This document shows positions 1,001-19,769 of a stretch of 64,000 nt of DNA, piece by piece. Origin of the DNA: a virus. Below the pieces are notes generated by a model. The model did no database searches, was not told the DNA's origin, and was given only the letters and a program-made list of their open reading frames with translations. A program made the translations under genes and the position numbers. The first letter of the stretch is position 1, and every line of letters starts with the position of its first letter. The stretch lies in the IMG/VR virus record IMGVR_UViG_3300050498_000393; one strand, 5' to 3'.

Positions 1001-2719
1001 TTACACGCCGCAGGCGGTGAGGTCCGCGGCACCGGTGGTGCCATCCGGGCAGATCGGCACGGTGTACAGCCGGGACTCGTGACCCATCTTCGCGATCAAC
1101 CAGCACTCCTCCTGCCACTCGGCCGTGTGGTCGTTGGTGGCGTTGAGCACCGAATCACGGATGACACCGAGGTTGAGTCGCAGTCCCCGGCCGAGTACGA
1201 ACGTACCCGGCGCGTAGATCATGAACTGGACGGTGAGCGGCCAGACCACGATCGGCGTCGACTGACCCGGGAACCCGGAGGCCCGCACCTGCCAGTCATT
1301 AACCCACTGAACGCGAACGTTCTCGACGTCGAACATGTCCATGAGCGCGGCGTCGGCGACCGTAAGATACCGGAAGTCACCGCCTCGCTTCCGCAGGTCA
1401 GACCGCATCGCGGCGCGCACCCAACGGGGGAGGATAACCTCGAGGATCGCGTCTTCGCACATCGCGTACTTCTCACGGTAGTCGATCGCGGCGAGTGAGA
1501 TCGCACCGAGCACCGGCGCGACGAGGCCGGATCCCGCGGCACCCATGCCGGTGATCGCCGTACCGCTGGCCGTGAGCAACTTCGCGATGTACCGACCGTT
1601 CATCTTGTGCGCGTGTGCCGCGAACAGCAACTTGGTGTGATTCGCGATCAACTCGGGGAACGCATCCTCCGTCAGGTTACCGACGGTGAGACAGATGCCG
1701 TCACACTCGAGACGTTCCTCGAGGAAGGACGGACACGGTACCCGTGCGCAGGTCTTGGTGCCGGCGCCGGTGCCGGTGACGGCCGCGACATCCTGCAGTT
1801 CGGTCCACGACCACATCGCCGCGTTACCGACCAGGTCACCGAACGAGGCCGACACTGGGAAGCGAATGCCACCCCGGTTGATGCCGATCGTCGGAAGGTC
1901 GATCATGCCGTCTTCACAGACGATGTTGTAGAAGTCATACGAGATCTCACTCGGCGCGCACCAGCCACCCGCGGCGACCAGCGCCTCCGGGTCCGTGGCC
2001 GCGGTGAGCACGTCATTGATCTGCTCAGGTGTCGCATCCGGGCCGAGGGTGTACCGGAACTGACGCTCGAGCGCCGCGATCGGGTAGCGCGTCGCGCGCT
2101 CCCAGTCCTCATCGGCACCCCGCACCGCCGCGATCGGCAACGCGCGGGCGCGCGCCGTCATCGCGGCGACCAGCGAGTCCATGCCGTCCAGCCTACCGCC
2201 CGTGGTGAAACCCGGGATGTCGGCGGAGGCCACGAGCACCGGCTCGGTGCGCGGCGCCTTGATCTTCGGCGCGTGCGTCTGCGCGTCCGCGAGTGACAAA
2301 TTCAGCTTGCGAGTCGCACGCCGCGCCGGCTGGGTCGTCGCGCCGCCGGCGACCACCGCGACCGCCGGCGCCGGAGTACCCTCGCCGGCGCCCTCATTGT
2401 CACCCTCGCCGCCCTCGGCGTCTCCGTCACCCTCGCCGTCCTCGGGCTCCTCGGGCTGAACGTGCACCCGGGCCATGAGGGCCTCGCGACCGGCGGCGAT
2501 GTCCGCGCGTTCCTGGATACGGCGTGCGTTCTCGCCGCGAACCGTGTCGACCATGTCGGCCAGCTCGGTTGCGCGCGCCAGTCCGTCCGCGTTGATGTTC
2601 GGATCGCCGGTGACCTCGTCAAACTCGGCGGTGGCGTCCGTCTCGAACGTCGCGAGTTCCTCGTCACTCAGCGCGGTGTAGTCCTCGGGAGGCTGGACCG
2701 GCCCCTTGTTCTTTGCCAC
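1001..2719 (-). CDS. major capsid protein with N-terminal coiled-coil/acidic delta-like region
   Basis: ORF track gives 1001..2776. I prefer the in-frame GTG at 2719 (AGGTGG upstream), which lies downstream of hairpin 2761-2792. A charged helical N-terminus and acidic EPEDGEGDGDAEGGEGD linker precede the GGWCAPSE... capsid-like body. Follows the protease gene. Confidence 0.75.
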   Translation of the reverse strand: MAKNKGPVQPPEDYTALSDEELATFETDATAEFDEVTGDPNINADGLARATELADMVDTVRGENARRIQERADIAAGREALMARVHVQPEEPEDGEGDGDAEGGEGDNEGAGEGTPAPAVAVVAGGATTQPARRATRKLNLSLADAQTHAPKIKAPRTEPVLVASADIPGFTTGGRLDGMDSLVAAMTARARALPIAAVRGADEDWERATRYPIAALERQFRYTLGPDATPEQINDVLTAATDPEALVAAGGWCAPSEISYDFYNIVCEDGMIDLPTIGINRGGIRFPVSASFGDLVGNAAMWSWTELQDVAAVTGTGAGTKTCARVPCPSFLEERLECDGICLTVGNLTEDAFPELIANHTKLLFAAHAHKMNGRYIAKLLTASGTAITGMGAAGSGLVAPVLGAISLAAIDYREKYAMCEDAILEVILPRWVRAAMRSDLRKRGGDFRYLTVADAALMDMFDVENVRVQWVNDWQVRASGFPGQSTPIVVWPLTVQFMIYAPGTFVLGRGLRLNLGVIRDSVLNATNDHTAEWQEECWLIAKMGHESRLYTVPICPDGTTGAADLTACGV

Positions 2720-2760
2720 GGCGTGCCACCTATCGCATCTGCTTCGTAGTGACAAGGATC

Positions 2761-2792
2761 GGCCCGGTACCAGCATACGGAGGTACCGGGCC
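2761..2792 (-). promoter_or_regulatory. perfect 11-bp stem-loop upstream of the capsid gene
   Basis: GGCCCGGTACC-N10-GGTACCGGGCC, between the small ORF stop (2820) and the capsid GTG (2719). Could be an attenuator or RNA-processing site. Confidence 0.5.
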
Positions 2793-2819
2793 GACTGTCA
2801 AACGAAACCGTGGTGAGAT

Positions 2820-2981
2820 TTAGCCGCGCGAGTTGGCGATGGCCGCCCGGACGCTGGACAACTCGGCCGCGCGACGCTCTCGCATGGTCTGCGTAACCGG
2901 TGCGATCGTCGACGTGTCTACCGGCTCCGTGAGCTGCGCCGAGGTCACCGCCTCCTTCGTCTTACCGCAACCGCAAGCCAT
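2820..2981 (-). CDS. small head-module protein (53 aa, MACGCGK...)
   Basis: Not in the ORF track (<60 aa). ATG at 2981 with a GGAGGAG Shine-Dalgarno (SD). Fills the gap between the protease stop (2985) and the capsid gene. Confidence 0.5.
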   Translation of the reverse strand: MACGCGKTKEAVTSAQLTEPVDTSTIAPVTQTMRERRAAELSSVRAAIANSRG

Positions 2982-2984
2982 TGT

Positions 2985-5486
2985 TCACTCCTCCAGTGCG
3001 TTTCGGCGACGCCGACGCGTCTCCTCATCCATCTCATCTGAGAGTAGTCTCTCGAGTGTCCGAAGTTCACGCGCCTCATCCTCATCGAGACCCTGATCCT
3101 CGGCCTGCGCCTGAAGCTGATGCAGTCGTTTCCGATTCCCCGAACGCGTGGGACCTTCGACCGGGAAGTCGACGTAGTCCACGTCGCCGCCATCTCCGAT
3201 GTTCGGGACGCTTGAGATGCGGCCGCGACCGTGACCACCGTCACCCACGCTGTCATCTACCCACTTGCCGGTGGCGGGGTTTCGCTTCTGGTTTTTACGG
3301 AAGCGAAAGCTGGCATCATCTCCCACGTCCAGCGTCGCGGTCGAGTGCACCCGTGACTTCAACGCCGCCACGCGGTCGGCCGGTGTGCGACCGAGCCGTC
3401 GCTGTAGGCTGGCGACGACGACGTCGAACGCGTTACGCTCGACGCGCGACCGCTGCAGCTCGAAGTCGACGTCCGCGTCGGCGTGAACGACGCGCACCGG
3501 CACGGACGCCGCGACGAGCTCACCGTTGTCCACCTGAACGGTCGGGGCGCTCCGAGCCAGCGGGAAACCCGGCACGGGTACGAGCAGTGCGGCCACGAGC
3601 TCGCGGCGTCCCGGCTGATCGCGGATTGGCTGCCAGTCACCGGAGAGCCGGCACGTCATCATCTTCGTGATCTGCTCGGCGGTGACGCCGGCCACCAACG
3701 CGCCGGCCACCCACGTGCCACGCTCCGACTCGCCGACGTTGACGCGCGCCACGATCGAGCACGTGTTGTGGTAGTGGTCGGGCGCCCAGTTCAGGTCGGC
3801 GCGTCGCGGGTCGTGCGGGTTGGCGTGGCCGCACTCCATGGTGATCGGTCCGGTGACCACGCGTCCTCCGCCGGCGACGATGGTCTCGCCTCCGAGGAAC
3901 CGCCGGTAGTCGACGTTCCGCGGCGCGTACACCCTGCGGTCGGCGAACGACCGGTGGGCGACGTTGGCCGGCGCGAGCCAGCCGTACACGCGACCCTGGT
4001 CGGTGACGGTGAGCGCGCCGTGTTGCTGGACATCCAGCGGTTCGGCGAACCACTCGGCCGGCGGCACGTCCGAGATCGTGATGACGTGAGCCGCGGCGGT
4101 CAGCGGCTCGGCGGGGGGTGTCGGTGCCATGCCGGCGGCCTCCAGGTGTCGCTGTAGGTGGGCGCGCGCCCGCTCGACGCGCTCGGCGGGTAGCCGCATT
4201 AGATCCAGCGCACGCAGCGCCGCGGTAACGCCGGTGACGTTGGCCGGACCGGCGACGCCGTTCTCGTCCACCTCGTGGTGCAGCAGCGCGCAGTCGTCGC
4301 GCGACGTCATGCCGCTGGTGTGCCAGTTAACGGTCGCGAACGCGCGCAGCGCGCTGGTCAACTTGAGGTCACGCGGCAACCGCGACGCGTGAAGCGGTGC
4401 GTTCCACGGTCCGTCAGACAACTCGATGAAGTGCTGCTCGCTGAGTGCGTAGGCGGGCGAACGCGTCGACTCGGGCGGGCTACCCACCCCGCTGGCCGGT
4501 GGACTCTCGCTGCGTAGGTAGATCCGCGACTCGGTGAACGCCGGGTACTCGACGAGTGTCGCGCCGCGCAGTCGTCCCTTGTGGTAGATGGTCTTCTCGG
4601 GCTTGCCGAAGACCAAGGACACGACGTCACCCTCGAGTCCTTCGGTCTGCGGCTGCTCCGGGTAGATCTCCTCAACGAACGCGTCCTTGGTCGAGTCGAC
4701 CATACCCGAGACGCCGGTGAGTCGCGGCGTCGGCTTCTCGGACATGCGTCGGAACGCCTCGTGCGCGTGATCGTCGGGCGGACCGCCGAGGTCGAGCGTA
4801 CCGCGTCCGTTGACGAGCATGACCGGTTCGGGGTGCCCCGGCAACATCACGGGTCCCTCACGCCACACCTCGTGGATGGTGCCCACGCGTGTCGTCTTGT
4901 CGTTGGTGCCGCCGTGACTGTACTCGTACTGCCAGTCGAGCGGCATGTTACCGCTGGCCGGGTCATCCCAGTCGAGAGAGTTGTGCGCGAACTCGCGGCC
5001 GTCACCCGACTCGATGCCCTCGACGATCAGCGTGCCTTCCCAGGCGCCGGTCTCGTCGACGGTGAAGCCGAGCGTGTCCTCGGTCTGCGTCGTAAACGTC
5101 TCGCCGTCGAGCTCACTGGGCACGGTTCCTCCTCGGGGCCACTCGCCGGTCGCGGCCTTGTGATACTCGGCGCAGAGTCCGCCCGGATCCGTTATGGAAG
5201 GATGCTTACTCAGGTGCCGGATGCAGCGACCCATCGCGCCGTCGGTGCCCCACCGGATCTTGACGGCACCCTCGCCACGCGTCCAGTACTTAAGCAGACC
5301 ACGACCGCCGGGTGCGACCGCGAGCGAGAGCTCGTACACCTCGATCTCGGTGGTGTTCGCGTTCGCGTAGAGGGCGCGTACCTGCGCCTCGGCGGACGAC
5401 TCGCTGTCGTGACACGCGACGGTGGACGAGTCGGCGGCCTTCACGACGCACCACTTATCGCCGCGCTTCTCGACGTCCCACGGCAC
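2985..5486 (-). CDS. capsid maturation protease / scaffold-like fusion (833 aa)
   Basis: Lies between the MuF/2H genes and the capsid gene. Segments YWTRGEGAVKIRWGTDGAMGRCIRHLSKH..GLCAEYH and ITMECGHANPHD..WAPDHYHNTCSIVARV are typical of actinophage prohead proteases. Has a charged helical C-terminal tail. GGAGGAGG SD. Confidence 0.65.
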   Translation of the reverse strand: MPWDVEKRGDKWCVVKAADSSTVACHDSESSAEAQVRALYANANTTEIEVYELSLAVAPGGRGLLKYWTRGEGAVKIRWGTDGAMGRCIRHLSKHPSITDPGGLCAEYHKAATGEWPRGGTVPSELDGETFTTQTEDTLGFTVDETGAWEGTLIVEGIESGDGREFAHNSLDWDDPASGNMPLDWQYEYSHGGTNDKTTRVGTIHEVWREGPVMLPGHPEPVMLVNGRGTLDLGGPPDDHAHEAFRRMSEKPTPRLTGVSGMVDSTKDAFVEEIYPEQPQTEGLEGDVVSLVFGKPEKTIYHKGRLRGATLVEYPAFTESRIYLRSESPPASGVGSPPESTRSPAYALSEQHFIELSDGPWNAPLHASRLPRDLKLTSALRAFATVNWHTSGMTSRDDCALLHHEVDENGVAGPANVTGVTAALRALDLMRLPAERVERARAHLQRHLEAAGMAPTPPAEPLTAAAHVITISDVPPAEWFAEPLDVQQHGALTVTDQGRVYGWLAPANVAHRSFADRRVYAPRNVDYRRFLGGETIVAGGGRVVTGPITMECGHANPHDPRRADLNWAPDHYHNTCSIVARVNVGESERGTWVAGALVAGVTAEQITKMMTCRLSGDWQPIRDQPGRRELVAALLVPVPGFPLARSAPTVQVDNGELVAASVPVRVVHADADVDFELQRSRVERNAFDVVVASLQRRLGRTPADRVAALKSRVHSTATLDVGDDASFRFRKNQKRNPATGKWVDDSVGDGGHGRGRISSVPNIGDGGDVDYVDFPVEGPTRSGNRKRLHQLQAQAEDQGLDEDEARELRTLERLLSDEMDEETRRRRRNALEE

Positions 5487-5523
5487 GGCGCACCTCCTCC
5501 ACCCGCTGGTCGCTAGGGTAGCA

Positions 5524-6252
5524 CTAGGAGGAGATCTCGCCGAGTGGGATGTCGACCACCTCGTCAGAGAACGCGACGCGGATCCGGTCGAAGATGATCG
5601 GACCGGTGAGCTCGGCCAGCGACTCCACGTCCACGTCGCCGCCCTCCGCGTAGAGCAGGGTGACGTGCGGGATCCACGGCGAGCGCTGCTCGGGCATCAC
5701 CCAACCGTCGTCGCGTACCGCACCGAGTGTCTCACACACGCTCCACTGGAGCTCCTCGAGCGCGCCGGTGTCATCGCCGACTATTAGCACGACGCACGGC
5801 TCGTCACCCTGCGGGTTGAACTCGGCGACGGCGAACGCGCTGCCGGTGACCGGAACGTCGACCGCGTGGTGCAGCAGTTGCTTGATAATCTCACCGCGTG
5901 CGGCGGGTGGCACCGTGCTGGCTGCACCGAGGAACGCGAGCGTTAGGTGCAGCTGTTCTTCATCCTCACCGCCGTCGACGGCCAGTCGCTCGGCGTCGAC
6001 GACTCGTGGCACGAGCGCGATCATGGCGCCGGTGTGTGACTCGCCGGCCGCGGTGAGGATACCAAGCACCTCCGCATCGGTGAGCTCGCGTTCCGCGACG
6101 ATCGTAGACGACGCGATCTCCTGCCACGGCGGCACGCCGGTGGTCAGAAAGCGACGCGCCTGACCGTCGCTCAACGGCACGGCCTCGACCAGCGTCGTCA
6201 ACCTGAAGCCGTGGTCACTCTCGACGGGTCCCACGTTCGACGGCTGGGTCAC
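5524..6252 (-). CDS. 2H phosphoesterase superfamily protein (LigT/CPDase/Acb1-like)
   Basis: Two H-x-T-x motifs: H102-L-T-L (EQLHLTLAFLG) and H196-V-T-L (IPHVTLLY). The start abuts the stop of the MuF gene. Confidence 0.75.
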   Translation of the reverse strand: MTQPSNVGPVESDHGFRLTTLVEAVPLSDGQARRFLTTGVPPWQEIASSTIVAERELTDAEVLGILTAAGESHTGAMIALVPRVVDAERLAVDGGEDEEQLHLTLAFLGAASTVPPAARGEIIKQLLHHAVDVPVTGSAFAVAEFNPQGDEPCVVLIVGDDTGALEELQWSVCETLGAVRDDGWVMPEQRSPWIPHVTLLYAEGGDVDVESLAELTGPIIFDRIRVAFSDEVVDIPLGEISS

Positions 6253-9200
6253 GGCTCCGGCACCACCCTCAAGCGCACCACGATCTTACTACCGACCTTC
6301 TTCACCGAGATGATCCGGAAGTGGAGGCCGGCGGCCAGCGTCATCTCGTTCTCGGACTTGAAGTGAGAGATCGGTCGAACGTACGCCATGGGCGTTCCCG
6401 GCGGCGCCTCGATCTCGAGTCGCACGGTCTTCGAGAACGCCTCCTTACCCCCGACGCTGGTCGAGCTGAAGCCGTCCGCCCGGTACGTCTGGCCAACCAT
6501 CGCCAGTAGTTGATCATAGCTCTTCGCGCCGCCGACGCCGTCCAGGCCGGTGCCGCGGTGTAACAGCATCGGTCGCGTGGACGGCCGCATGCCGGCCTGT
6601 ATGTGAATCATCGCCGTCTCGTTCGAGGACGAGAGCGAGTCGGAGTCACCCCACAGGTACGAGTTGATCGAGTAGTAGATGCCGCCGGTGTACGCGGTGA
6701 GGCCGGCCTGCTCCTCACTGGTCCAGTCCCCGTACTTCTTCTTGGACGCCTTGGACGCGGCGAGCGCATCGATGGTCGACACGACGTCGTACGTGTACTT
6801 ACCGGTCGTGTCGAAGTCCTCGATCTCGGCCGGAACCTTGAGCTTAGGCTTCTCAGGCTTCGGGATCGGCAGGCCCGCGGCCGCCGCGGCGCCCTTCGGT
6901 GTCTTGAGCCACGCGAGTACGTTGTTCTGGTAGGCCTTCGCGTCGTTGCCGGTGGCCTTGACCTTCGCCGCGCGGATCTCGTCGAGTACCTGTAGCACCT
7001 GCAGCAACGATAGGTTGTAGTCGCTACCAACTTGCTTAGCCGCGGTGTAGATCGCGGCGGGTGAACCCTTCGCGGATGAGGTGCTCGGCAGCTTCTTGAA
7101 CTCGGCGTAGATCTCCTGCTTGGTGGCGGCCGGAAGGTGACCGATGCCCGATGTGGTGATGTCGGGTGGCTCGGCGCCGGGTGTGAGCGGCGCGGTGGAC
7201 GTGGGTGACTGACCCAGCGCCTCCTTCAACTGCGCAATCGACAGTCCTGACTGCACGGCGCCCTTGTTGGTCTTAAGCCACTTGTGGATCTTGTCGGTGT
7301 GGGGCGTCGGTGACTTCTTGGTCTTGGTACCCTCGTCGAGCGCGTGCAAGATCTGCAATGTGCTATACGCGGGGTAAAGCTGCTTGATCTTCTTAACCGC
7401 GGCCCAGATGTCCTCGGGCTTCGAGTACCAGTGAGCGCCTTGCTCCTTAGCGAGCGTCTGCATGAACTGCTTCGACGCCGCTGAGATACCCGAAGTGTCG
7501 CCGACGACAGACGGTGTGACAACCGGCACGACAGACACCGGCGAGGTAACGCTACCGGGCGCCGGGTAGTCAGCTTGCTGGCCCGGCGTGCTCGGTACCT
7601 CCCACTGCCCGAACCACGGCTGTTTGCTCTGCTTGATGACTTCCTGCTTACCGACGACACTGACCTTCGACCATGTGCCGTCCCAGTTCTTTTTCTCGAA
7701 CGTGTACGTCGTCGAGTTCTTAACCAGTCGCCACTGCCCATCTACCGACGTCGCAATGAGCGTACCGGGTGAAAACTTCCCACCGAGCAAACCCTGCCAG
7801 TTCTGGATCGTAAGCTCATTCTCAACGTAACCACCCGACACGTCGGGCTCACCGGTCCACGGCACCCACTTCGACCCGTAGCCAAACGTCAGTTGCTCGA
7901 TCTGCGTGGAGGCGATGTCGCCGTCGTCACTGAGACTGACGTCGTCGATCGACAGCCACGTCCCGTGAAGCTGCTTCTTCTCGACCGTGATCGTGTTGCT
8001 GGCGTAGCTGTTGATAATGAGTCGGTACGTACCGTCGTGAGTCACCGCGATCGGTATCGTGGGATCGTACTCCTGCTCGTAGATGCCCGTGAGAACGCTG
8101 GACCAGTCGACGCCCTCGGCGATCACGTCCTCGGAGATCGTGGATGTCGTAGGCGTCGGCAGCTCCGTGAGCGAGAACGCCGGTGACGCCACGGCGTGCC
8201 ACTCCGGTGCGTAGTTGAGCAGCTCACTATGCAGCTTATCGCCGGTGTCATACGTGTAAAGATCAATTGAATCGAGTTGTGACACGTACCACCGGGTGGT
8301 GTATGAGACCAAAAAGACACCGGTGTTGGTGCTCTGCGTGAGCTGATACTTGCCACCCGACGGCGTGATCGCCTCCGCGACCGCCGTGCCACTCGGGTAG
8401 TCACCCGCGTAGTTGCCTTCGATGATTTGATCCCAGTTGGGTGTGGTACCTACGTCAACGTCCCCGGGCTGCCCTACCAGATCGGGCGCGTTCGTGGCCT
8501 GGGGAGGAAGTGACGGTTCACCACCAGGGATGAACCAGCCGGTCTGACTCTTAAGCTTGGTGTACGCCTCCTTCTTGGAGTACGAGAATGATGTCGTCTT
8601 CGTTGGGCCTACGATGGTGTGCACGTACTTCTTTTGCCCATCATCCCACACGAGTTTCTGGCTGCCATCTGCCGAAACGGCGATAACATCACCGTCCGCG
8701 TATGGCTCCTTCGGCCAGATGACACCCGTGGTGATCTTAAGCGGGTCACCGGGCTTACCCTTCGGCTTCTTCGCACCACCCGAGAGTGTCGGACCTGCCT
8801 TCTCCTTCACGGGTGACTCGACGAGCGACTCGAGCTGCGGCGTGGATACCGGCTTAGACTTCGAAGGCTCCCCGTCATAGAGATCAAAGATCGCCTCGAT
8901 GTTCTTAGCCAGCGCCGGGTGCAGTTGCCCAGACTGCTCGAGCTCCTTGATCTCCGCGTAGGTGAGCCACTTCGCGTCGCCGGTCTCGGTCTGGTCCACA
9001 ACCGGGTCGAACATCTCGGGCGCGTCGGCGGCGATGGACGAGTACACCCACGGCTGCTTACCCTCGATCGGCACGGCCGTCGAGTGCGTGCCGACCTTCT
9101 TCATCGAGCCGACGTAGTCCGCGGGCGCGCCGATCTCCTCGTGGATCTCGCGCGCGGCACCCTGCTCAGGTGTCTCGAATTCATCGATGGCGCCCCCGGC

Positions 9201-12011
9201 CAGCTGCCACTTACCCTTGTTCGAGGAGACCTGGGGACCGCGCTGGACGAGCAGGAATCGTTCGGTGCCGTCCTCGTCGGTGTGTCGGATCATGACGCCC
9301 GCGGCGCCATACCGTCCCCACAGTCCCGGCGCGGCGTAGCCGTCGCCGGACTTCCCACGCTGATCCTTAGGCAGAATCGTGAACGGCATCGCGTCGGCCG
9401 CCGGCTTCTTCTCACCCGGCTCGGGTACGCCGAAGCGCTTCATGAGGTAGGCACGACGCTTCTTCAGCCTATCGGCGAGGTCCTTGCCCAGGCCCGCGTT
9501 GACGACGGCCTGGTCGATCGCCTCGGGCGTGATCGCCGCGACGCGCTTCACCGACTCGCGGATCTCGTCGTCGGTCATGTCCCCGAACAACTGGGCAGCC
9601 TGCGCGTTGATCTTTGGATCACGCAACGTGTCGATCTCGAGGGCATCATCGCCGAACTCGGCGCCCTTCGGCTTACCCTTTGCCCGGAACAGCAGCGTTC
9701 CACCGACGTCGATCCGGTGCGGCTCACCATCATCGCCGGTGACGATGTTGTCGAGCGTGAGACCGGCAACGTCCCAGTTGGCCAGCCAGGCGTCGACCGC
9801 GAAGCCCTCCTGGAGCTTCTTCCGGTACGCCGGGTCCTTGAGCTTCACGGAGAGATCGGGCACCGCGCCCGGCACGAGGTCCGTGTACGTCTGGCCGACA
9901 GTCGTGTCCGGCAGATCGGGCGCGTCGGTGGCGCGGTGCACCTGCGGCGTGTCGACACCGGCGGCGCGGTAGAGCGCCGAGGCAAGCACCTCATTCTTGG
10001 CGTGCTTCTCGGACTTGGCCCGCTTGACGTAGATCCGGTGTCCGGTTGGTCCCTCGTAGACGCCCCCGAGGTTGGAGCCCTTCTGGCCAGAGATCTTCTT
10101 GTAGCCCTTGAGACTGGCGACCAACTTCGAGATCAGCACCTTGACGCCGGCCTGCTTCGCGAACTTACCCTCCGTATCGCGCTTGACCTGTGACTCCTGG
10201 AAGGGCTTCTTCGCGGCGACGAGTGTCGCGTCATCTCCGTCCACGGTGTCCATACTATCATCTTGTGAGACTTTGACACGCTTAACGTGATCGGCGGGGA
10301 TCGGTGGACCAACGTCCACACACGGCGGGATGTCGACGGTGCTCACAGTCTGCCAACTCATCGACCCAGTCAAGGTGGTGACGTACCGCACCTGCGTCTC
10401 ATACACGTCAGCACCAGCCGTCACCAGTTCAACGTCAACACGTCTAATACCCTTGGCATCTACGCCGTGATCCGCGACGATTCGAAACTTCGAGTTACGC
10501 GGTAACAGTACCTCACGCTCCCACGCATACTTCTCGGTGATGCTTGGAAAGTCAGCCCGCCCTATGCGTAGCGTCGGCGTATCCTTGGGTACCAAGATAC
10601 GCATGATCAACGGTGCGCCTGTGAGTGCACCGGTGTGTGCCGCCGATGTAAAGTGTTCGGCCGTTGAGCCATCTACGGTAACGGAGGTAAACCCCGGGTC
10701 ATCCCACGTTAAACCAACGTTGCTCTCATCGTCGTGCCATGACTCCCCGAATATCGCACTCGGGTTGATGATGCCGCGTTCCACGACGACATCACGCTTA
10801 AGCTTCGCCTTCGGCTGCTGAAACGCCAGATCAAGTGTGCGAACGCTGTCGCCGTAGCCGACGACACGACCCTGACCCTGGTCGTCCCTCTCGGTGAACC
10901 ATGAATCGCGATCGGTACCCTCACGTAACCTTCCGTTAAGTTGAAACGCGTCATTTTGATAACTGCCTACCGCGTGACTAAGGCCCGAGACGGTGGTTGG
11001 GCCGATCTGCCCACTCGCGTTAGGTCCAAGATTTCGACCCTTGTCATCAACTACACCGAACTCATCCGTAGACGTAACCACGTCGTAGGCCTTGTCGCCG
11101 GTACGTGCCTTACCTAGGCGCTTAAGAATCTTTGTGATATCACCCACACTTAACGTCTCACGGTGGCCGTGTGCCTTCTGATCGTGTAGCCCAGGCAAAT
11201 GAAATGTCTCGGCTTCGGTGGCCGCGATAACAACCTCCGCAACATCGACAACGTCGTCAATGTCGGTCGAGATGTGAAACAGCTGGGTGCACCGACAGTT
11301 GATCGTCTCACCCGGCGGTCCGGTCACATCGCCCGGGTAGTCGAGGAGCGCGCCGCCGACCTCATACTTTCCGTCCAGCGGCACGCTCTGGCCGTCGGCC
11401 AGCGCGTGGCTCGGCCGGGTCCGGTCGTCCTCGGTGGCCCGCCACTCCTTCTTACCCTCGAGACCGGACACCCGCAGCTGGGCGAGCGAGCCCGCCTCCA
11501 GGGCGGCGTGCGCCTCGGTGCGTGCGATCGTTAGGGCCCGCGCCTCGGACAGCTTGGCGATGTCCTGGACGCGCTTCGCGAGCTGCCCCGAGGTCTCCCC
11601 CAGGCGCAGGCCGTCGGCCAGCGCGAGGCGGATCAGCTCCCAGAGCTCGGTGGCCAGTGCCTTGACCCGGTTCGTCGCCGCCGTCAGGAAGTCGGTGGCG
11701 TCGGGCGCGGTGACCTGACCGCCGAGCGACGCGTTGACGGCGTCGGCCGCGCCGTAGTACAGCGTGGCAACGAACGGGGTGAGCTTACCCTCGACCTCGT
11801 CGTGCCACGCCTGCACGACGAGCGACGCGTCGTCGGGCGAGGTGGACGCCACGAGTCCCGACCAGCCCAGCTGGCCGGCGGTGACCGCCGACTGCGAGAG
11901 CACGTGGTTTGCGACGGCGTACACGGATCGCCGAAGCGACGCGCGAAAGCGTGCCTCGGTCGCGATGATCCTCTCGTCAATCTGGGCGAGTGTGAGCGCG
12001 GCGAGCTCCAC
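6249..12011 (-). CDS. MuF-like minor capsid protein fused to multiple enzymatic domains (1,920 aa)
   Basis: Single uninterrupted ORF directly downstream of the portal gene. N-terminal SPP1 gp7/MuF signature plus the domains listed separately below. Confidence 0.9.
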   Translation of the reverse strand: MELAALTLAQIDERIIATEARFRASLRRSVYAVANHVLSQSAVTAGQLGWSGLVASTSPDDASLVVQAWHDEVEGKLTPFVATLYYGAADAVNASLGGQVTAPDATDFLTAATNRVKALATELWELIRLALADGLRLGETSGQLAKRVQDIAKLSEARALTIARTEAHAALEAGSLAQLRVSGLEGKKEWRATEDDRTRPSHALADGQSVPLDGKYEVGGALLDYPGDVTGPPGETINCRCTQLFHISTDIDDVVDVAEVVIAATEAETFHLPGLHDQKAHGHRETLSVGDITKILKRLGKARTGDKAYDVVTSTDEFGVVDDKGRNLGPNASGQIGPTTVSGLSHAVGSYQNDAFQLNGRLREGTDRDSWFTERDDQGQGRVVGYGDSVRTLDLAFQQPKAKLKRDVVVERGIINPSAIFGESWHDDESNVGLTWDDPGFTSVTVDGSTAEHFTSAAHTGALTGAPLIMRILVPKDTPTLRIGRADFPSITEKYAWEREVLLPRNSKFRIVADHGVDAKGIRRVDVELVTAGADVYETQVRYVTTLTGSMSWQTVSTVDIPPCVDVGPPIPADHVKRVKVSQDDSMDTVDGDDATLVAAKKPFQESQVKRDTEGKFAKQAGVKVLISKLVASLKGYKKISGQKGSNLGGVYEGPTGHRIYVKRAKSEKHAKNEVLASALYRAAGVDTPQVHRATDAPDLPDTTVGQTYTDLVPGAVPDLSVKLKDPAYRKKLQEGFAVDAWLANWDVAGLTLDNIVTGDDGEPHRIDVGGTLLFRAKGKPKGAEFGDDALEIDTLRDPKINAQAAQLFGDMTDDEIRESVKRVAAITPEAIDQAVVNAGLGKDLADRLKKRRAYLMKRFGVPEPGEKKPAADAMPFTILPKDQRGKSGDGYAAPGLWGRYGAAGVMIRHTDEDGTERFLLVQRGPQVSSNKGKWQLAGGAIDEFETPEQGAAREIHEEIGAPADYVGSMKKVGTHSTAVPIEGKQPWVYSSIAADAPEMFDPVVDQTETGDAKWLTYAEIKELEQSGQLHPALAKNIEAIFDLYDGEPSKSKPVSTPQLESLVESPVKEKAGPTLSGGAKKPKGKPGDPLKITTGVIWPKEPYADGDVIAVSADGSQKLVWDDGQKKYVHTIVGPTKTTSFSYSKKEAYTKLKSQTGWFIPGGEPSLPPQATNAPDLVGQPGDVDVGTTPNWDQIIEGNYAGDYPSGTAVAEAITPSGGKYQLTQSTNTGVFLVSYTTRWYVSQLDSIDLYTYDTGDKLHSELLNYAPEWHAVASPAFSLTELPTPTTSTISEDVIAEGVDWSSVLTGIYEQEYDPTIPIAVTHDGTYRLIINSYASNTITVEKKQLHGTWLSIDDVSLSDDGDIASTQIEQLTFGYGSKWVPWTGEPDVSGGYVENELTIQNWQGLLGGKFSPGTLIATSVDGQWRLVKNSTTYTFEKKNWDGTWSKVSVVGKQEVIKQSKQPWFGQWEVPSTPGQQADYPAPGSVTSPVSVVPVVTPSVVGDTSGISAASKQFMQTLAKEQGAHWYSKPEDIWAAVKKIKQLYPAYSTLQILHALDEGTKTKKSPTPHTDKIHKWLKTNKGAVQSGLSIAQLKEALGQSPTSTAPLTPGAEPPDITTSGIGHLPAATKQEIYAEFKKLPSTSSAKGSPAAIYTAAKQVGSDYNLSLLQVLQVLDEIRAAKVKATGNDAKAYQNNVLAWLKTPKGAAAAAGLPIPKPEKPKLKVPAEIEDFDTTGKYTYDVVSTIDALAASKASKKKYGDWTSEEQAGLTAYTGGIYYSINSYLWGDSDSLSSSNETAMIHIQAGMRPSTRPMLLHRGTGLDGVGGAKSYDQLLAMVGQTYRADGFSSTSVGGKEAFSKTVRLEIEAPPGTPMAYVRPISHFKSENEMTLAAGLHFRIISVKKVGSKIVVRLRVVPEP
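6252..6809 (-). other. C-terminal ADP-ribosyltransferase domain (ART2) of the MuF fusion
   Basis: aa ~1735-1920: YTGGIYYSINSYL, R1819 (LLHRG), S1849-S-T-S (GFSSTS), E1887-N-E1889 (SENEMTL). This is the canonical R-STS-ExE triad. Confidence 0.8.
6876..7490 (-). repeat. two ~90-aa helical protein repeats inside the MuF fusion
   Basis: SKQFMQTLAKE..LQILHALDE..IHKWLKTNKGA versus TKQEIYAEFKK..LQVLQVLDE..VLAWLKTPKGA (aa ~1508-1712). Confidence 0.6.
7602..8726 (-). repeat. four beta-rich protein repeats inside the MuF fusion
   Basis: DGSQKLVWDDGQKKY / GGKYQLTQSTNTG / DGTYRLIINSYASNT..EKKQLHGTW / DGQWRLVKNSTTYTFEKKNWDGTW (aa ~1096-1470). This stretch is visibly lower in GC and Lys-rich. Confidence 0.55.
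8877..9329 (-). other. Nudix hydrolase domain of the MuF fusion
   Basis: aa 939-961, GGAIDEFETPEQGAAREIHEEIG, matches the Nudix box GX5EX7REUXEEXGU. Confidence 0.8.
9462..10124 (-). other. protein-kinase-like domain of the MuF fusion (family unresolved)
   Basis: aa ~630-850: Gly-rich loop GSNLGGVY, IYVKR lysine, NEVLASALY Glu, WDVAGLTLDNIV and HRIDVGG. The motif order matches a kinase fold. Confidence 0.45.
10422..10994 (-). other. internal ADP-ribosyltransferase-like domain (ART1) of the MuF fusion
   Basis: aa ~340-530: R412 (VVVERG), F441-T-S-V-T445, E498-R-E500 (WEREVLLP). This is an R-S-E triad pattern. Confidence 0.6.
11277..11714 (-). other. MuF / SPP1 gp7 head-morphogenesis domain
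   Basis: ARTEAHAALEAG..WRATEDDRTRPSHALADGQSV..GETINCRCT (aa ~100-245). Confidence 0.8.
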
Positions 12012-18111: not shown

Positions 18112-18270
18112 TCAGATCCGAAACCGGTGACCGCAGTTCCAGCAGGTGTACACGTAAAAGTGGCTAGGTGAGCCGTCGCCGCCACGCGAAACCGGGTAGT
18201 CGTGGATGTCCCAGAGACGCCGGCTAAACCAACAGATGAATCTGATCGGTACGAGTGGACGCAACGTCAT
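18112..18270 (-). CDS. small Cys-containing protein (52 aa)
   Basis: Hand-found ORF. Its ATG forms an ATGA overlap with the TerL stop. Ends ...YVYTCWNCGHRFRI. Confidence 0.5.
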   Translation of the reverse strand: MTLRPLVPIRFICWFSRRLWDIHDYPVSRGGDGSPSHFYVYTCWNCGHRFRI

Positions 18271-19769
18271 CGCCGTCCCGGTCCACCGAGCACGGGTACG
18301 TTCGGGTGCAGCCGGGAGACCAGGTTGCGGGACATGCTGTCGGCGCGCGGCAGCGGTTTGGCCTGGGTGTGCGTCTTGAAGAACGCGAGTAGCAGGGCCT
18401 CGGCGGAGTCGGGTGAGAAGCCGAGCCGCTCGATGATGTCCTTCTTGGGCTCGATCTTGACTTTACCGTGTGAGTCGAGAATCTCGTAGCGTGGCGTGGT
18501 GAGCTCGTGGATCGTGTCGTCGTCGACGTTCCGCAGGTCCCACGTGCCGAGCCGGGACAGCTCACGGCCGACGACCCACCACAGTTCGGCGCGCTTGTTC
18601 AGGTACTTCTTCTCGAGACCGGGCGACGGCAGTGAGCCGAAGTTGATCGGGATGACCTCGGCACCGTGCGTGCCCTCGCCGGCGTAGTTGTGCCGCCGCG
18701 AGAGCTCCTTCAACCGACCGAAGATTCCCCACCCGATGCCGCCCGAGTCGACGCGCACCCGGGTAAGCCCCCACTCCTCGATGGCCTGAGCCAGCAGGCC
18801 CACCGTGCGCATCGGGTCGCGGTCGATGAACACCAGCTCACGCCCGGCGACGGGACCGACCCGCTCGCGGATGATGGTCCGGTCGCCACCGGCCCCGACG
18901 TCTATCCCTCCCTCCCGGACGGCCGGATCCTCCGGGAGATCGGCCAGCTGGCACAGCCGCGCCCAGTCGTACTGCACGACGGCGAACGGGTCACCACCGC
19001 TGGGGAACTCACCCTCGCACTTCGACTGGAACAAGGCGCTGTCCGGTCCCCACCGTTTACGACGCGACTCCACCCAGTGCGGCGCGATCAACACCTCGGC
19101 AAGCGCGGGTGACACCGGCTCGCCGGTGAAGTTCGGCGTGTCGCGGTAGGAGATGCGAATGACGTGCCAGCCGGACGTAGGCTTGCACACGTTCTGAAAC
19201 TCGCCGGGGCCATCCGGGTTGCCGATGGCCAGGATCCGCGAGTGCTCGCCGGAGGCCAGCGACTCGGCCGCGTCCCAGAGCTCCTTGGGGATGCCGTACG
19301 CCTCGTCGAGCACGACCAGCAGGTACCGGGCGTGCACCCCCTGGAAGGCCGTCGGGTCGTAGTCGGCCGGCTTACGCCCGAACGCCACCATCTCCTTACC
19401 GACGTACCACTCGGTCAGGTTGGTGCGACCGACCAACCCGGCGCGCGCGTGCACGCGGTTGATCTCGTACCAGAGAACCGCCTCGACCTGCTTGGTAGAC
19501 GGCGCGGTGGTAACCACGCGCGCGTCCCCGACGGGGTGCGAGTCCAGCCACCAGCAGACCGTCTCGGCCGCGGTCCACGACTTACCCGCGCTGTGGCACG
19601 ACTTCACCGCGACGCGGTGGTGGTCTCGTACCGCCTCGAGGATCTCGCGTTGCTTAGCGTAGAGCTCGCCGCGCGTGCGCTCCGTCACCCACGCCACCGG
19701 ATCCCGCCGCCAGCGAAGCTCGGGCGGGTCGATGAGGTCGGCGGCGCGGGACGCCCAGCCAGCGGTCAC
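18267..19769 (-). CDS. terL: terminase large subunit
   Basis: Walker A CHSAGKS, Walker B LLVVLDEA, nuclease-type C-terminal half, 500 aa. Confidence 0.85.
   Translation of the reverse strand: MTAGWASRAADLIDPPELRWRRDPVAWVTERTRGELYAKQREILEAVRDHHRVAVKSCHSAGKSWTAAETVCWWLDSHPVGDARVVTTAPSTKQVEAVLWYEINRVHARAGLVGRTNLTEWYVGKEMVAFGRKPADYDPTAFQGVHARYLLVVLDEAYGIPKELWDAAESLASGEHSRILAIGNPDGPGEFQNVCKPTSGWHVIRISYRDTPNFTGEPVSPALAEVLIAPHWVESRRKRWGPDSALFQSKCEGEFPSGGDPFAVVQYDWARLCQLADLPEDPAVREGGIDVGAGGDRTIIRERVGPVAGRELVFIDRDPMRTVGLLAQAIEEWGLTRVRVDSGGIGWGIFGRLKELSRRHNYAGEGTHGAEVIPINFGSLPSPGLEKKYLNKRAELWWVVGRELSRLGTWDLRNVDDDTIHELTTPRYEILDSHGKVKIEPKKDIIERLGFSPDSAEALLLAFFKTHTQAKPLPRADSMSRNLVSRLHPNVPVLGGPGRR

Follow-up and report, generated by a model that had tools for sequence, protein, structure and literature searches.

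Relation to Described Virion-Embedded Effector Proteins

Iyer et al. (2017, PMC5512222) defined polyvalent proteins as virion-embedded proteins with 2 to 15 domains. ADP-ribosyltransferase (ART) is the commonest modifying domain in them, and 2H phosphoesterase domains occur in them or are fused to MuF or portal proteins. We analysed a related gene in a 64,000-nucleotide (nt) stretch of viral DNA (IMG/VR record IMGVR_UViG_3300050498_000393), which is called the window below. The gene encodes a giant protein that carries a MuF domain followed by ART, kinase-like, Nudix and ART domains in one open reading frame (ORF) between the portal and capsid genes, and its domain architecture is variable and shuffled among relatives. 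As in polyvalent proteins, several effector domains share one polypeptide with a MuF anchor, the gene lies among head and packaging genes, and the protein is predicted to act by being injected along with the DNA. Judged from these features, the giant protein is probably a polyvalent virion protein, that is, a packaged and injected multi-enzyme effector.

Head-packaged MuF-ART and MuF-Nudix fusions have been catalogued by Iyer et al. (2022, PMC9503650), and MuF-VIP2 fusions are known from Microbacterium phages Percival, Goodman and Johann (PMC7302621). The window protein resembles the 2022 fusions in the Alt/VIP2-family ART on MuF, the Nudix domain on a head protein and the predicted early action on NAD+ (nicotinamide adenine dinucleotide) and ADP-ribose. 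However, those fusions are mostly single-effector, whereas the window protein unites four effector domains, namely two ARTs, one kinase-like and one Nudix, in one chain. The 2022 Nudix clades are T4 NudE-like and NadM-like, whereas the Nudix domain of the window is closest to actinobacterial RenU. T4 Alt is a functional precedent for the ARTs, since it is packaged, injected and ADP-ribosylates host RNA polymerase (PMC5512222). However, Alt is a single enzyme with marginal sequence similarity, and no MuF fusion is described for it in the literature compared. Filing the giant protein as T4 Alt-like was rejected, the match to phrog_802 being only marginal (E = 0.009). The MuF polymorphic toxins of Jamet et al. 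(2017, PMC5576092) share the N-terminal MuF domain, the location in the packaging module and the possible use of an ART as toxin, but they have a single C-terminal toxin and are reported only in temperate phages, mostly of Firmicutes.

A preliminary description of this sequence regarded the multi-enzyme architecture as unusual compared with single-toxin MuF fusions. This was overstated, because polyvalent proteins and MuF-ART, MuF-Nudix and 2H-MuF/portal fusions had already been described (PMC5512222, PMC9503650 and PMC7302621). The giant protein is an elaborate example of the polyvalent-protein strategy and no new kind of system.

MuF Domain and the Two ADP-ribosyltransferases

The domain identities, the intact catalytic motifs, the position of the gene and the shuffling of the modules were established directly. 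The preliminary description named one uninterrupted ORF directly after the portal gene, and the ORF in the window agrees with an independent gene call on the source contig that gave an identical protein (ENA assembly ERZ27257649 k141_977963, 65,534 bp). Only 3 nt separate the portal gene from the start of the giant ORF, and GAGG lies just upstream of the GTG start. The coordinates of all features are listed in Table 1.

The N-terminal SPP1 gp7/MuF signature that had been noticed was recovered by PF04233 well above the Pfam cut-off, and TIGR01641 scored 37.8 bits, slightly below its cut-off of 39.65. The whole MuF module covers amino acids (aa) 1-251. The location of MuF/gp7 proteins in the head was established from SPP1 gp7 (cited in PMC5576092 and PMC5512222). 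The MuF domain and the position of the gene next to the portal gene fit a protein that would be packaged in the head.

The first ART (ART1) was recognised by PF03496 when its segment was scanned alone rather than within the whole protein. In an exhaustive HMMER search, 1.84 billion cluster representatives yielded 546 homologues of ART1. Over 204 aligned ART1-type domains, R412 was conserved in 191, S443 in 190 and the glutamate of E500 in 198, while the position of E498 held Glu in 148 and Gln in 25. Conservation of the catalytic residues in homologues had been proposed as a check, and the R/S/ExE residues of ART1 are kept across these domains. The residues first proposed were R412, T442-S443 and E498-x-E500; R412, S443, E498 and E500 stand, but the S-T-S motif is in another register and reads S443-V444-T445. 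Its middle threonine is therefore Val444, and valine is found likewise in 9 of the 204 homologues.

A conserved extension precedes ART domains in dozens of homologues found by jackhmmer. The His-rich motif HLPGLHDQKAHG lies between MuF and ART1 and may bind a metal, serve for docking or be cut during processing. A tblastn search with aa 250-363, which include HLPGLHDQKAHG, gave no match in 50,697 phage records. The core of the HLPGLHDQKAHG module has about seven weak profile matches along a 2,201-aa homologue (P0083), where the strict motif pattern occurs only once.

The second ART (ART2) lies at the C-terminus. The whole protein scored 81.3 bits against PF03496 for both ARTs together, and the ART2 segment alone scored 61.5 bits (E = 9e-17). 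A C-terminal ART with R1819, S-T-S and E1887-x-E1889 had been proposed, and these residues are intact: R1819, SSTS at 1849-1852 (S1850-T-S1852) and E1887-N-E1889. PDB matches of ART2 were 8za7_B (1.6e-8) and also C3, Vip2, CdtA and iota Ia; a literature search on Lmo0066, its best PDB match, yielded nothing functional. Of 8 close relatives, only 4 gave a match to the strict ART2 pattern.

Kinase-Like and Nudix Domains

Protein-kinase-like motifs had been noticed at aa ~640-770. They consist of the G-loop G645-S-N-L-G-G, K663, E674, D747...N755 and D768-V-G-G. An alignment of 24 sequences gave the consensus GSNxGG, YVK, NE..A..LY, DAWLANWD...DN and R(I/V)DxGG. The AlphaFold2 model built from these 24 sequences had a predicted local distance difference test (pLDDT) score of 92.3 and a predicted template modelling (pTM) score of 0.90. 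Foldseek searches of the PDB with this model ranked Helicobacter pylori CtkA (3akl_C) first, with E = 3.8e-6, a template modelling (TM) score of 0.54 and 10% identity. There were 683 PDB matches at E ≤ 0.001, and all 50 of those listed were protein kinases. These results uphold the original motif assignment and extend the domain to aa ~626-870. More generally, profile and structure searches had been named as a check on the ART, kinase and Nudix assignments; Pfam gave the ARTs and the Nudix domain, and Foldseek gave the kinase.

In the model, K663 lies on strand 3, E674 on the next helix (helix C), D747...N755 before two short strands and D768 just after them. D747...N755 thus corresponds to the catalytic loop, and D768 takes the DFG-equivalent position. 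This placement is a protein-kinase-like active-site arrangement, and we therefore accepted a kinase-like fold. Pfam and PDB sequence searches with the kinase segment and the 24-sequence profile gave nothing significant. Per-member Pfam scans found weak matches to HipA_C (PF07804) in 7 of the 24 homologues (best E = 7.6e-5). The domain of the window itself matched neither HipA_C nor any other Pfam profile, and the TM-score to CtkA was only 0.54. On the model, the domain resembles the HipA/CtkA group, and its membership of the HipA family is not established. It shares the Lys, Glu, Asp...Asn and Asp catalytic set with CtkA/HipA kinases, but its C-terminal helical subdomain is different and it has no toxin-antitoxin context.

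The kinase clade reported in polyvalent proteins in 2017 lacks a C-terminal subdomain, has a His...Asp phosphotransfer pair and belongs to elements of Verrucomicrobia, Chlamydia and Bacteroidetes; an insert, a Glu before strand 2 and a Gln in the last N-lobe strand are further marks (PMC5512222). We compared the two by description. In contrast to that clade, the kinase of the window is CtkA/HipA-like with D747...N755 and D768-x-G-G, and it occurs on high-GC, actinophage-like contigs. In the 24-sequence alignment, the catalytic region contains no conserved His, and the model has a helical C-terminal part of ~70 aa.

The same domain was found inside large proteins of isolated phages, namely gp67 of Gordonia phage GodonK (1,479 aa, its gene next after that of the portal), an annotated "ADP-ribosyltransferase" of 1,213 aa in Pseudomonas phage Jeremy and a 2,253-aa protein of Escherichia coli phage ECML-606-1. 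This kinase family, which has no Pfam model, accompanies ARTs in phages of Actinobacteria, Pseudomonas, Yersinia, Aeromonas and E. coli. A standalone copy of 228 aa sits among small non-structural genes, a setting consistent with a putative early-acting effector.

The preliminary description also reported a perfect Nudix box, and we found an exact match to G-x5-E-x7-R-E-U-x-E-E-x-G-U inside the PF00293 match. No NCBIfam equivalog reached its cut-off for this domain. The closest solved relative is Mycobacterium smegmatis RenU (PDB 6uuf; E = 3.4e-18, 69.5 bits, ~135 residues). RenU hydrolyses ADP-ribose, flavin adenine dinucleotide (FAD) and NADH but leaves NAD+ uncleaved (PMC4401782). Whereas RenU stands alone as an enzyme of the cell and works with PknG and ribosomal protein L13, the Nudix domain of the window is embedded in a predicted virion protein beside an unrelated kinase. 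The Nudix and kinase motifs are kept in several close relatives.

Spacer Modules and Base Composition

Four beta-rich repeats and two helical repeats had been described between the Nudix domain and ART2. Profiles built with relatives recovered all four beta modules (aa ~1085-1165, 1185-1290, 1295-1395 and 1398-1490), but only one pair was significant in pairwise comparison (aa 1302-1358 against 1404-1450, E = 4e-7). The helical modules matched each other between aa 1506-1592 and 1620-1716 (E = 3e-5). Both module types recur many times in relatives, and the C-terminus of most relatives has the beta-helical-ART arrangement. An AlphaFold2 model of the fourth beta module (D) and the first helical module had a pLDDT of 64 overall and 70-86 within the modules, with a disordered linker. 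A homologue search with aa 1046-1735 gave no scored match, its candidate list being probably saturated by low-complexity words.

The Lys-rich character that had been noticed was also found, with 12% Lys in the linker at aa 561-625, 10% in the kinase domain and 12% in the helical modules, which have almost no Arg. The beta and helical modules at aa 1046-1735 (6807-8876, minus strand) contain 0.4-0.7% Arg and 7-12% Lys despite the high GC content of the genome; by comparison, the MuF part contains 6% Arg and 3% Lys. The linkers are rich in Pro, Ser, Thr and Val, and disorder is predicted for them.

A low GC content had been attributed to the middle third of the gene, together with acquisition of modules. 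We calculated the GC content at third codon positions (GC3) and found that a low-GC tract exists, but that it lies over ART1 and its N-terminal extension (the N+ART1 cassette) and not in the middle third. Milder dips (0.67-0.78) were found at codons ~1020-1260 and ~1380-1500. GC3 was 0.78-0.97 in the central kinase and Nudix part and 0.8-0.97 over the kinase, Nudix and ART2 parts, in or above the span of 0.74-0.89 in the structural genes used for comparison. P0002, the closest relative, runs collinear with the window protein except for two stretches that it is missing, aa ~252-590 with the ART1 module and aa ~863-1087 with Nudix. Because the first of these gaps coincides with the sharp fall of GC3, the N+ART1 cassette is read as an insertion, and the pattern points to its recent arrival from a lower-GC source. 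Module acquisition is thus supported by the gaps and the GC3 fall, with its location corrected to codons ~240-590.

Relatives and Shuffling of Modules

We found 13 relatives of 1,100-2,950 aa in the protein database, all from metagenomes or uncultured genomes. They contain the same modules, and the order and number of the modules vary (P0002-P0011 were compared), with shuffling noted for metagenomic relatives of 1,500-2,950 aa. With KIN, b, h and N standing for kinase-like, beta and helical modules and the extension of ART1, the architectures include MuF-KIN-b-b-h-h-ART (P0002), MuF-N-ART-Nudix-b-h-KIN-b-h-h-ART (P0003) and MuF-b-Nudix-KIN-b(x5)-h-ART (P0004). A survey of related phages for the same domain order had been proposed; the modules turned out to be shared, but their order is not conserved. 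In the relatives that were looked up, the giant gene follows a portal-like gene and precedes capsid genes. Relatives with two ARTs and a kinase are common.

Among 148 representatives of ART1-type proteins, 2H was fused in 19, the kinase in about 17 and Nudix in 5. This sample was collected via ART1 homology, and every member carries an ART by construction. Other fusions included KIN-ART, ART-KIN-ART, Nudix-KIN-ART and 2H-KIN-ART. P0014, a 1,438-aa protein encoded on a 5.9 Mb contig of an uncultured Pleomorphomonas genome, unites Nudix and an Acb1-type 2H (PF23474, 134 bits) with the same kinase and a C-terminal ART. The MuF domain is absent from P0014, so the module set travels outside MuF proteins too.

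Arrays of effector genes were observed at two loci. In L009 (Logan SRR23851208 contig, 68 kb), positions 1286-11799 between the portal and capsid genes hold a MuF-ART gene of 1,575 aa, an ART gene of 1,056 aa that bears the leader, two small genes and one of 711 aa whose product matches 2H, ART and Nudix. At the P0004 locus (L003), two more ART genes of 320 and 1,309 aa come after the giant MuF gene.

Downstream 2H Gene and Its Leader

The start of the 2H gene overlaps the stop of the giant ORF in GTGA (6249-6252). The 2H motifs are H-L-T at aa 102-104 and H-V-T at aa 196-198, and no PDB sequence match was found for the protein. An Acb1-type (PF23474) identity was rejected, as there was no profile match at E ≤ 1 and the protein does not resemble the Acb1 domain of P0014. 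In the 19 representatives counted above, a 2H of this subfamily is fused immediately ahead of an ART1-type domain, which makes a functional link between 2H and ART1-type domains plausible. A link of the giant protein with this abutting esterase had been suspected, and the 2H-ART fusions bear it out.

The 2H protein begins with a leader, HGFRLTTLVEAVPLSDGQARRFLTTGVPPWQ, whose consensus of ~30 aa is G[FS]xLtTlVEaxRGMTxxEAxrFLtTGxxP. This leader matches the extreme N-terminus of seven multi-domain ART proteins without MuF (i-E 4e-15 to 3e-7). At each of the four loci looked up, a giant upstream gene is immediately followed, and overlapped, by the gene that bears the leader. The upstream product has MuF and ART Pfam matches in L009, L010 and L011 (1,575, 1,821 and 1,594 aa); in L012 the 1,440-aa product is cut by the contig end and has no Pfam record. 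On this pattern, the leader possibly marks a second cargo gene and may be a capsid-targeting, packaging or MuF-docking peptide.

Proposed Role and Alternative Explanations

The packaging, injection, processing, activities and targets that we infer would combine as follows. The MuF/gp7 domain would anchor the protein inside the head at the portal. The string of enzymes, with the spacer modules and the disordered Pro/Ser/Thr-rich linkers, would enter the host with the DNA, whole or cleaved. The two R-S-ExE ARTs would mono-ADP-ribosylate host proteins using host NAD+, and arginine is the likely acceptor because of the ExE motif. Phosphorylation of host proteins would fall to the HipA/CtkA-like domain; T7 kinase, whose counter-defence role is the subject of PMC13645617, is a precedent. 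The RenU-like Nudix domain would hydrolyse dinucleotides of the ADP-ribose/NADH type, with free ADP-ribose, ADP-ribose-derived signals and NAD caps as candidates. A second cargo would be the 2H phosphoesterase, which is translationally coupled and would act on cyclic-phosphate or 2'-5'-linked nucleotides, whose removal has been proposed for 2H domains (PMC5512222 and PMC9503650). Acting together at the onset of infection, before phage gene expression, these enzymes could gain control of the host and weaken defences based on NAD+ and nucleotides. Injected proteins act before phage gene expression and are therefore prime candidates for first-strike counter-defence and host takeover.

Several points weigh against this reading. 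The phage is metagenomic and is known here from its sequence alone. The protein of ~205 kDa must unfold or be cleaved to pass the tail; the Pfam scan identified no protease gene, and cleavage sites cannot be called. The kinase of the window has no Pfam match and its TM-scores to solved kinases are moderate (0.3-0.54), so that its substrate may be either a protein or a small molecule. About one third of the protein consists of the beta and helical modules, for which no fold could be recognised; with the model of one beta and one helical module, Foldseek gave nothing better than E = 0.7 against the PDB.

The enzymes might form one coupled NAD/ADP-ribose pathway instead of independent weapons. 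In that case the ARTs, Nudix, 2H and perhaps the kinase would act sequentially on a single NAD-derived chemistry, for example in making or trimming ADP-ribose or RNA adducts or in destroying ADP-ribose-based immune signals. We consider this possible, though distinctly less probable than the reading above. The recurrent fusion of ART, kinase, Nudix and 2H in many combinations, including the 19 cases of 2H with ART, would suit such a pathway, as would the union of Nudix, Acb1-type 2H, kinase and ART without MuF in P0014, the 711-aa gene in the same array as the MuF gene of L009, and the preference of the closest solved Nudix relative for ADP-ribose, FAD and NADH. However, module order is unconserved, each module also occurs alone or with other partners, and any shuffled pool of effectors would yield such co-occurrence. 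In addition, ART is present in every protein of the ART1-seeded sample by construction, and the 2H of the window has no detectable similarity to Acb1. On coupled as against parallel action, the co-occurrence data are suggestive, but they are biased by a sample gathered through ART homology.

It is quite improbable that the protein is a MuF polymorphic toxin of the temperate-phage kind, serving as cargo for interbacterial competition or for the lysis-lysogeny decision. MuF toxins with a C-terminal ART are documented, ARTs making up 14% of 191 MuF toxins (PMC5576092), but the described form is MuF plus a C-terminal toxin domain in temperate phages of Firmicutes. The phage of the window is high-GC and actinophage-like and encodes its own DNA polymerase, primase/helicase and exonuclease. 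Moreover, neither an integrase nor an evident immunity gene was present among the ORFs scanned, in a scan that was not exhaustive. Membership of this class, which implies a single C-terminal toxin, a temperate phage and an immunity gene, was rejected on the several enzymatic domains and the replication module.

A mainly structural internal head or ejection protein with vestigial enzyme-like domains is very unlikely. About a third of the protein consists of repeated beta and helical modules without an enzymatic signature, and MuF/gp7 proteins have structural roles at the portal (PMC5576092). However, the catalytic motifs of all four enzyme domains are intact, and motifs are kept in homologues, that is, in the 204 ART1 domains, in the 24-sequence kinase alignment and, for Nudix and kinase, in the several close relatives; such retention is not what one expects of vestigial domains.

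An assembly or frameshift artefact fusing separate genes is hardly credible, for although the gene comes from a single metagenome contig and high-GC DNA yields long spurious ORFs, the recognised domains are all in one frame, the 13 relatives are independent proteins from other samples, and P0002 is collinear from residue 1 to the C-terminus.

If the giant protein is indeed an injected multi-enzyme effector, four enzymes would be delivered in one chain, with a fifth encoded next door. We found the beta and helical spacers and the leader of the following gene in none of the keyword-retrieved passages of PMC5512222. The passages of the polyvalent and MuF-fusion literature that were compared likewise contained no CtkA/HipA-like kinase as a regular partner of ART, Nudix and 2H, no such spacer modules and no such leader. 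The kinase partnership, the spacer modules and the leader are refinements within the known class.

A bolder proposal, which we hold to be unlikely, is that ART, CtkA/HipA-like kinase, RenU-like Nudix and 2H are a dedicated, co-evolving toolkit that disarms NAD+/ADP-ribose and nucleotide-signal immunity at DNA entry. Under this proposal, actinophage-like viruses would load the head by two routes, MuF fusion and the hitherto unrecognised ~30-aa leader of the following gene, the kinase would act on an ADP-ribose-linked or defence-specific substrate, and the leader would be a portable capsid-targeting signal.

The protein and its relatives offer defined domains with clear catalytic residues to mutate, and a natural series of module swaps that could tell which host defences select which cargo. 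If the leader is truly a packaging signal, it might be a route to load foreign proteins into capsids.

Gene Neighbourhood and Phage Genome

Table 1. Features of the giant gene, its neighbours and the leader-bearing genes of relatives (window coordinates unless a locus is named).
Feature	Residues	Position	Strand	Evidence or remark
Giant MuF polyvalent protein ORF	1,920 aa	6249..12011	(-)	GTG start, TGA stop
MuF / SPP1 gp7 domain	aa 127-243	11283..11633	(-)	PF04233 67.5 bits (cut-off 29.6); phrog_2468 E 9e-41
Conserved N-terminal extension of ART1-type domains	aa 255-335	11007..11249	(-)	jackhmmer
His-rich motif HLPGLHDQKAHG	aa 271-282	11166-11201	(-)	single occurrence in window
ART1, R-S-E ADP-ribosyltransferase	aa ~348-522	10446..10970	(-)	PF03496 28.0 bits (cut-off 23.4)
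Low-GC3 tract, N+ART1 cassette	codons ~240-590	10242..11294	(-)	GC3 0.50-0.68, falling from ~0.93; ~0.9 in flanks
Protein-kinase-like domain	aa 626-870	9402..10136	(-)	alignment, AlphaFold2 model, Foldseek
Nudix hydrolase domain	aa 908-1024	8940..9290	(-)	PF00293 57.3 bits (cut-off 21.1), E 2e-15
Nudix box	aa 940-962	9126-9194	(-)	regular expression; G940-x5-E-x7-REIHEEIGA exact
Four beta-rich modules, ~80-100 aa each	aa ~1085-1490	7542..8759	(-)	Pro/Ser/Thr-rich linkers between
Two helical modules, ~100 aa each	aa 1500-1735	6807..7514	(-)	conserved W-L-x-T-P-x-G end
ART2, C3/VIP2/iota-type ADP-ribosyltransferase	aa 1759-1907	6291..6737	(-)	PF03496
2H phosphoesterase gene	242 aa	5524..6252	(-)	PF13563 27.5 bits (cut-off 27.0, narrowly passed); phrog_2659 E 2e-27
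2H N-terminal leader, HGFRLTTLVEAVPLSDGQARRFLTTGVPPWQ	aa ~13-45	6118..6216	(-)	one occurrence in window
ORF between 2H and capsid genes	833 aa	2985-5486	(-)	phrog_859, phrog_18402, phrog_29860
Portal gene, immediately upstream of giant ORF	532 aa	12015..13613	(-)	phrog_776, E 3.8e-103
Large terminase gene		18267-19769		
Leader-bearing gene, L009		6001-9171		
Leader-bearing gene, L010		6430-10149		
Leader-bearing gene, L011		7001-9808		
Leader-bearing gene, L012		4320-5321		

Downstream of the giant ORF comes the gene of the 2H phosphoesterase, then that of a head-module protein of 833 aa and then that of the major capsid protein. The PHROG annotations matched by the 833-aa ORF are portal, head maturation protease and virion structural protein; Pfam and NCBIfam scans of this ORF gave no match, and a clear prohead protease was not identified in the head module. 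In GodonK, too, a portal gene and a giant gene, that of gp67, are neighbours.

The rest of the window encodes a large terminase, primase/helicase, DNA polymerase, helicase, exonuclease, methyltransferases and a tape measure protein. With these packaging, replication and tail genes, the window represents the greater part of the genome of a tailed phage. Its 64,000 nt contain no tRNA genes, and its GC content is 64%. The nearest relatives of the capsid and MuF proteins are from Streptomyces, Microbacterium, Gordonia and Mycobacterium phages, with low identity; for the capsid protein, identity to its counterparts in Streptomyces and Microbacterium phages does not exceed 32%. In the phage collection search, at most 14% of the giant protein was covered by any record. 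Minus-strand structural genes extend past both ends of the window, with tail genes at 50-64 kb and the capsid gene at 1-2.8 kb, as is expected of a circularly permuted or nearly complete phage contig.

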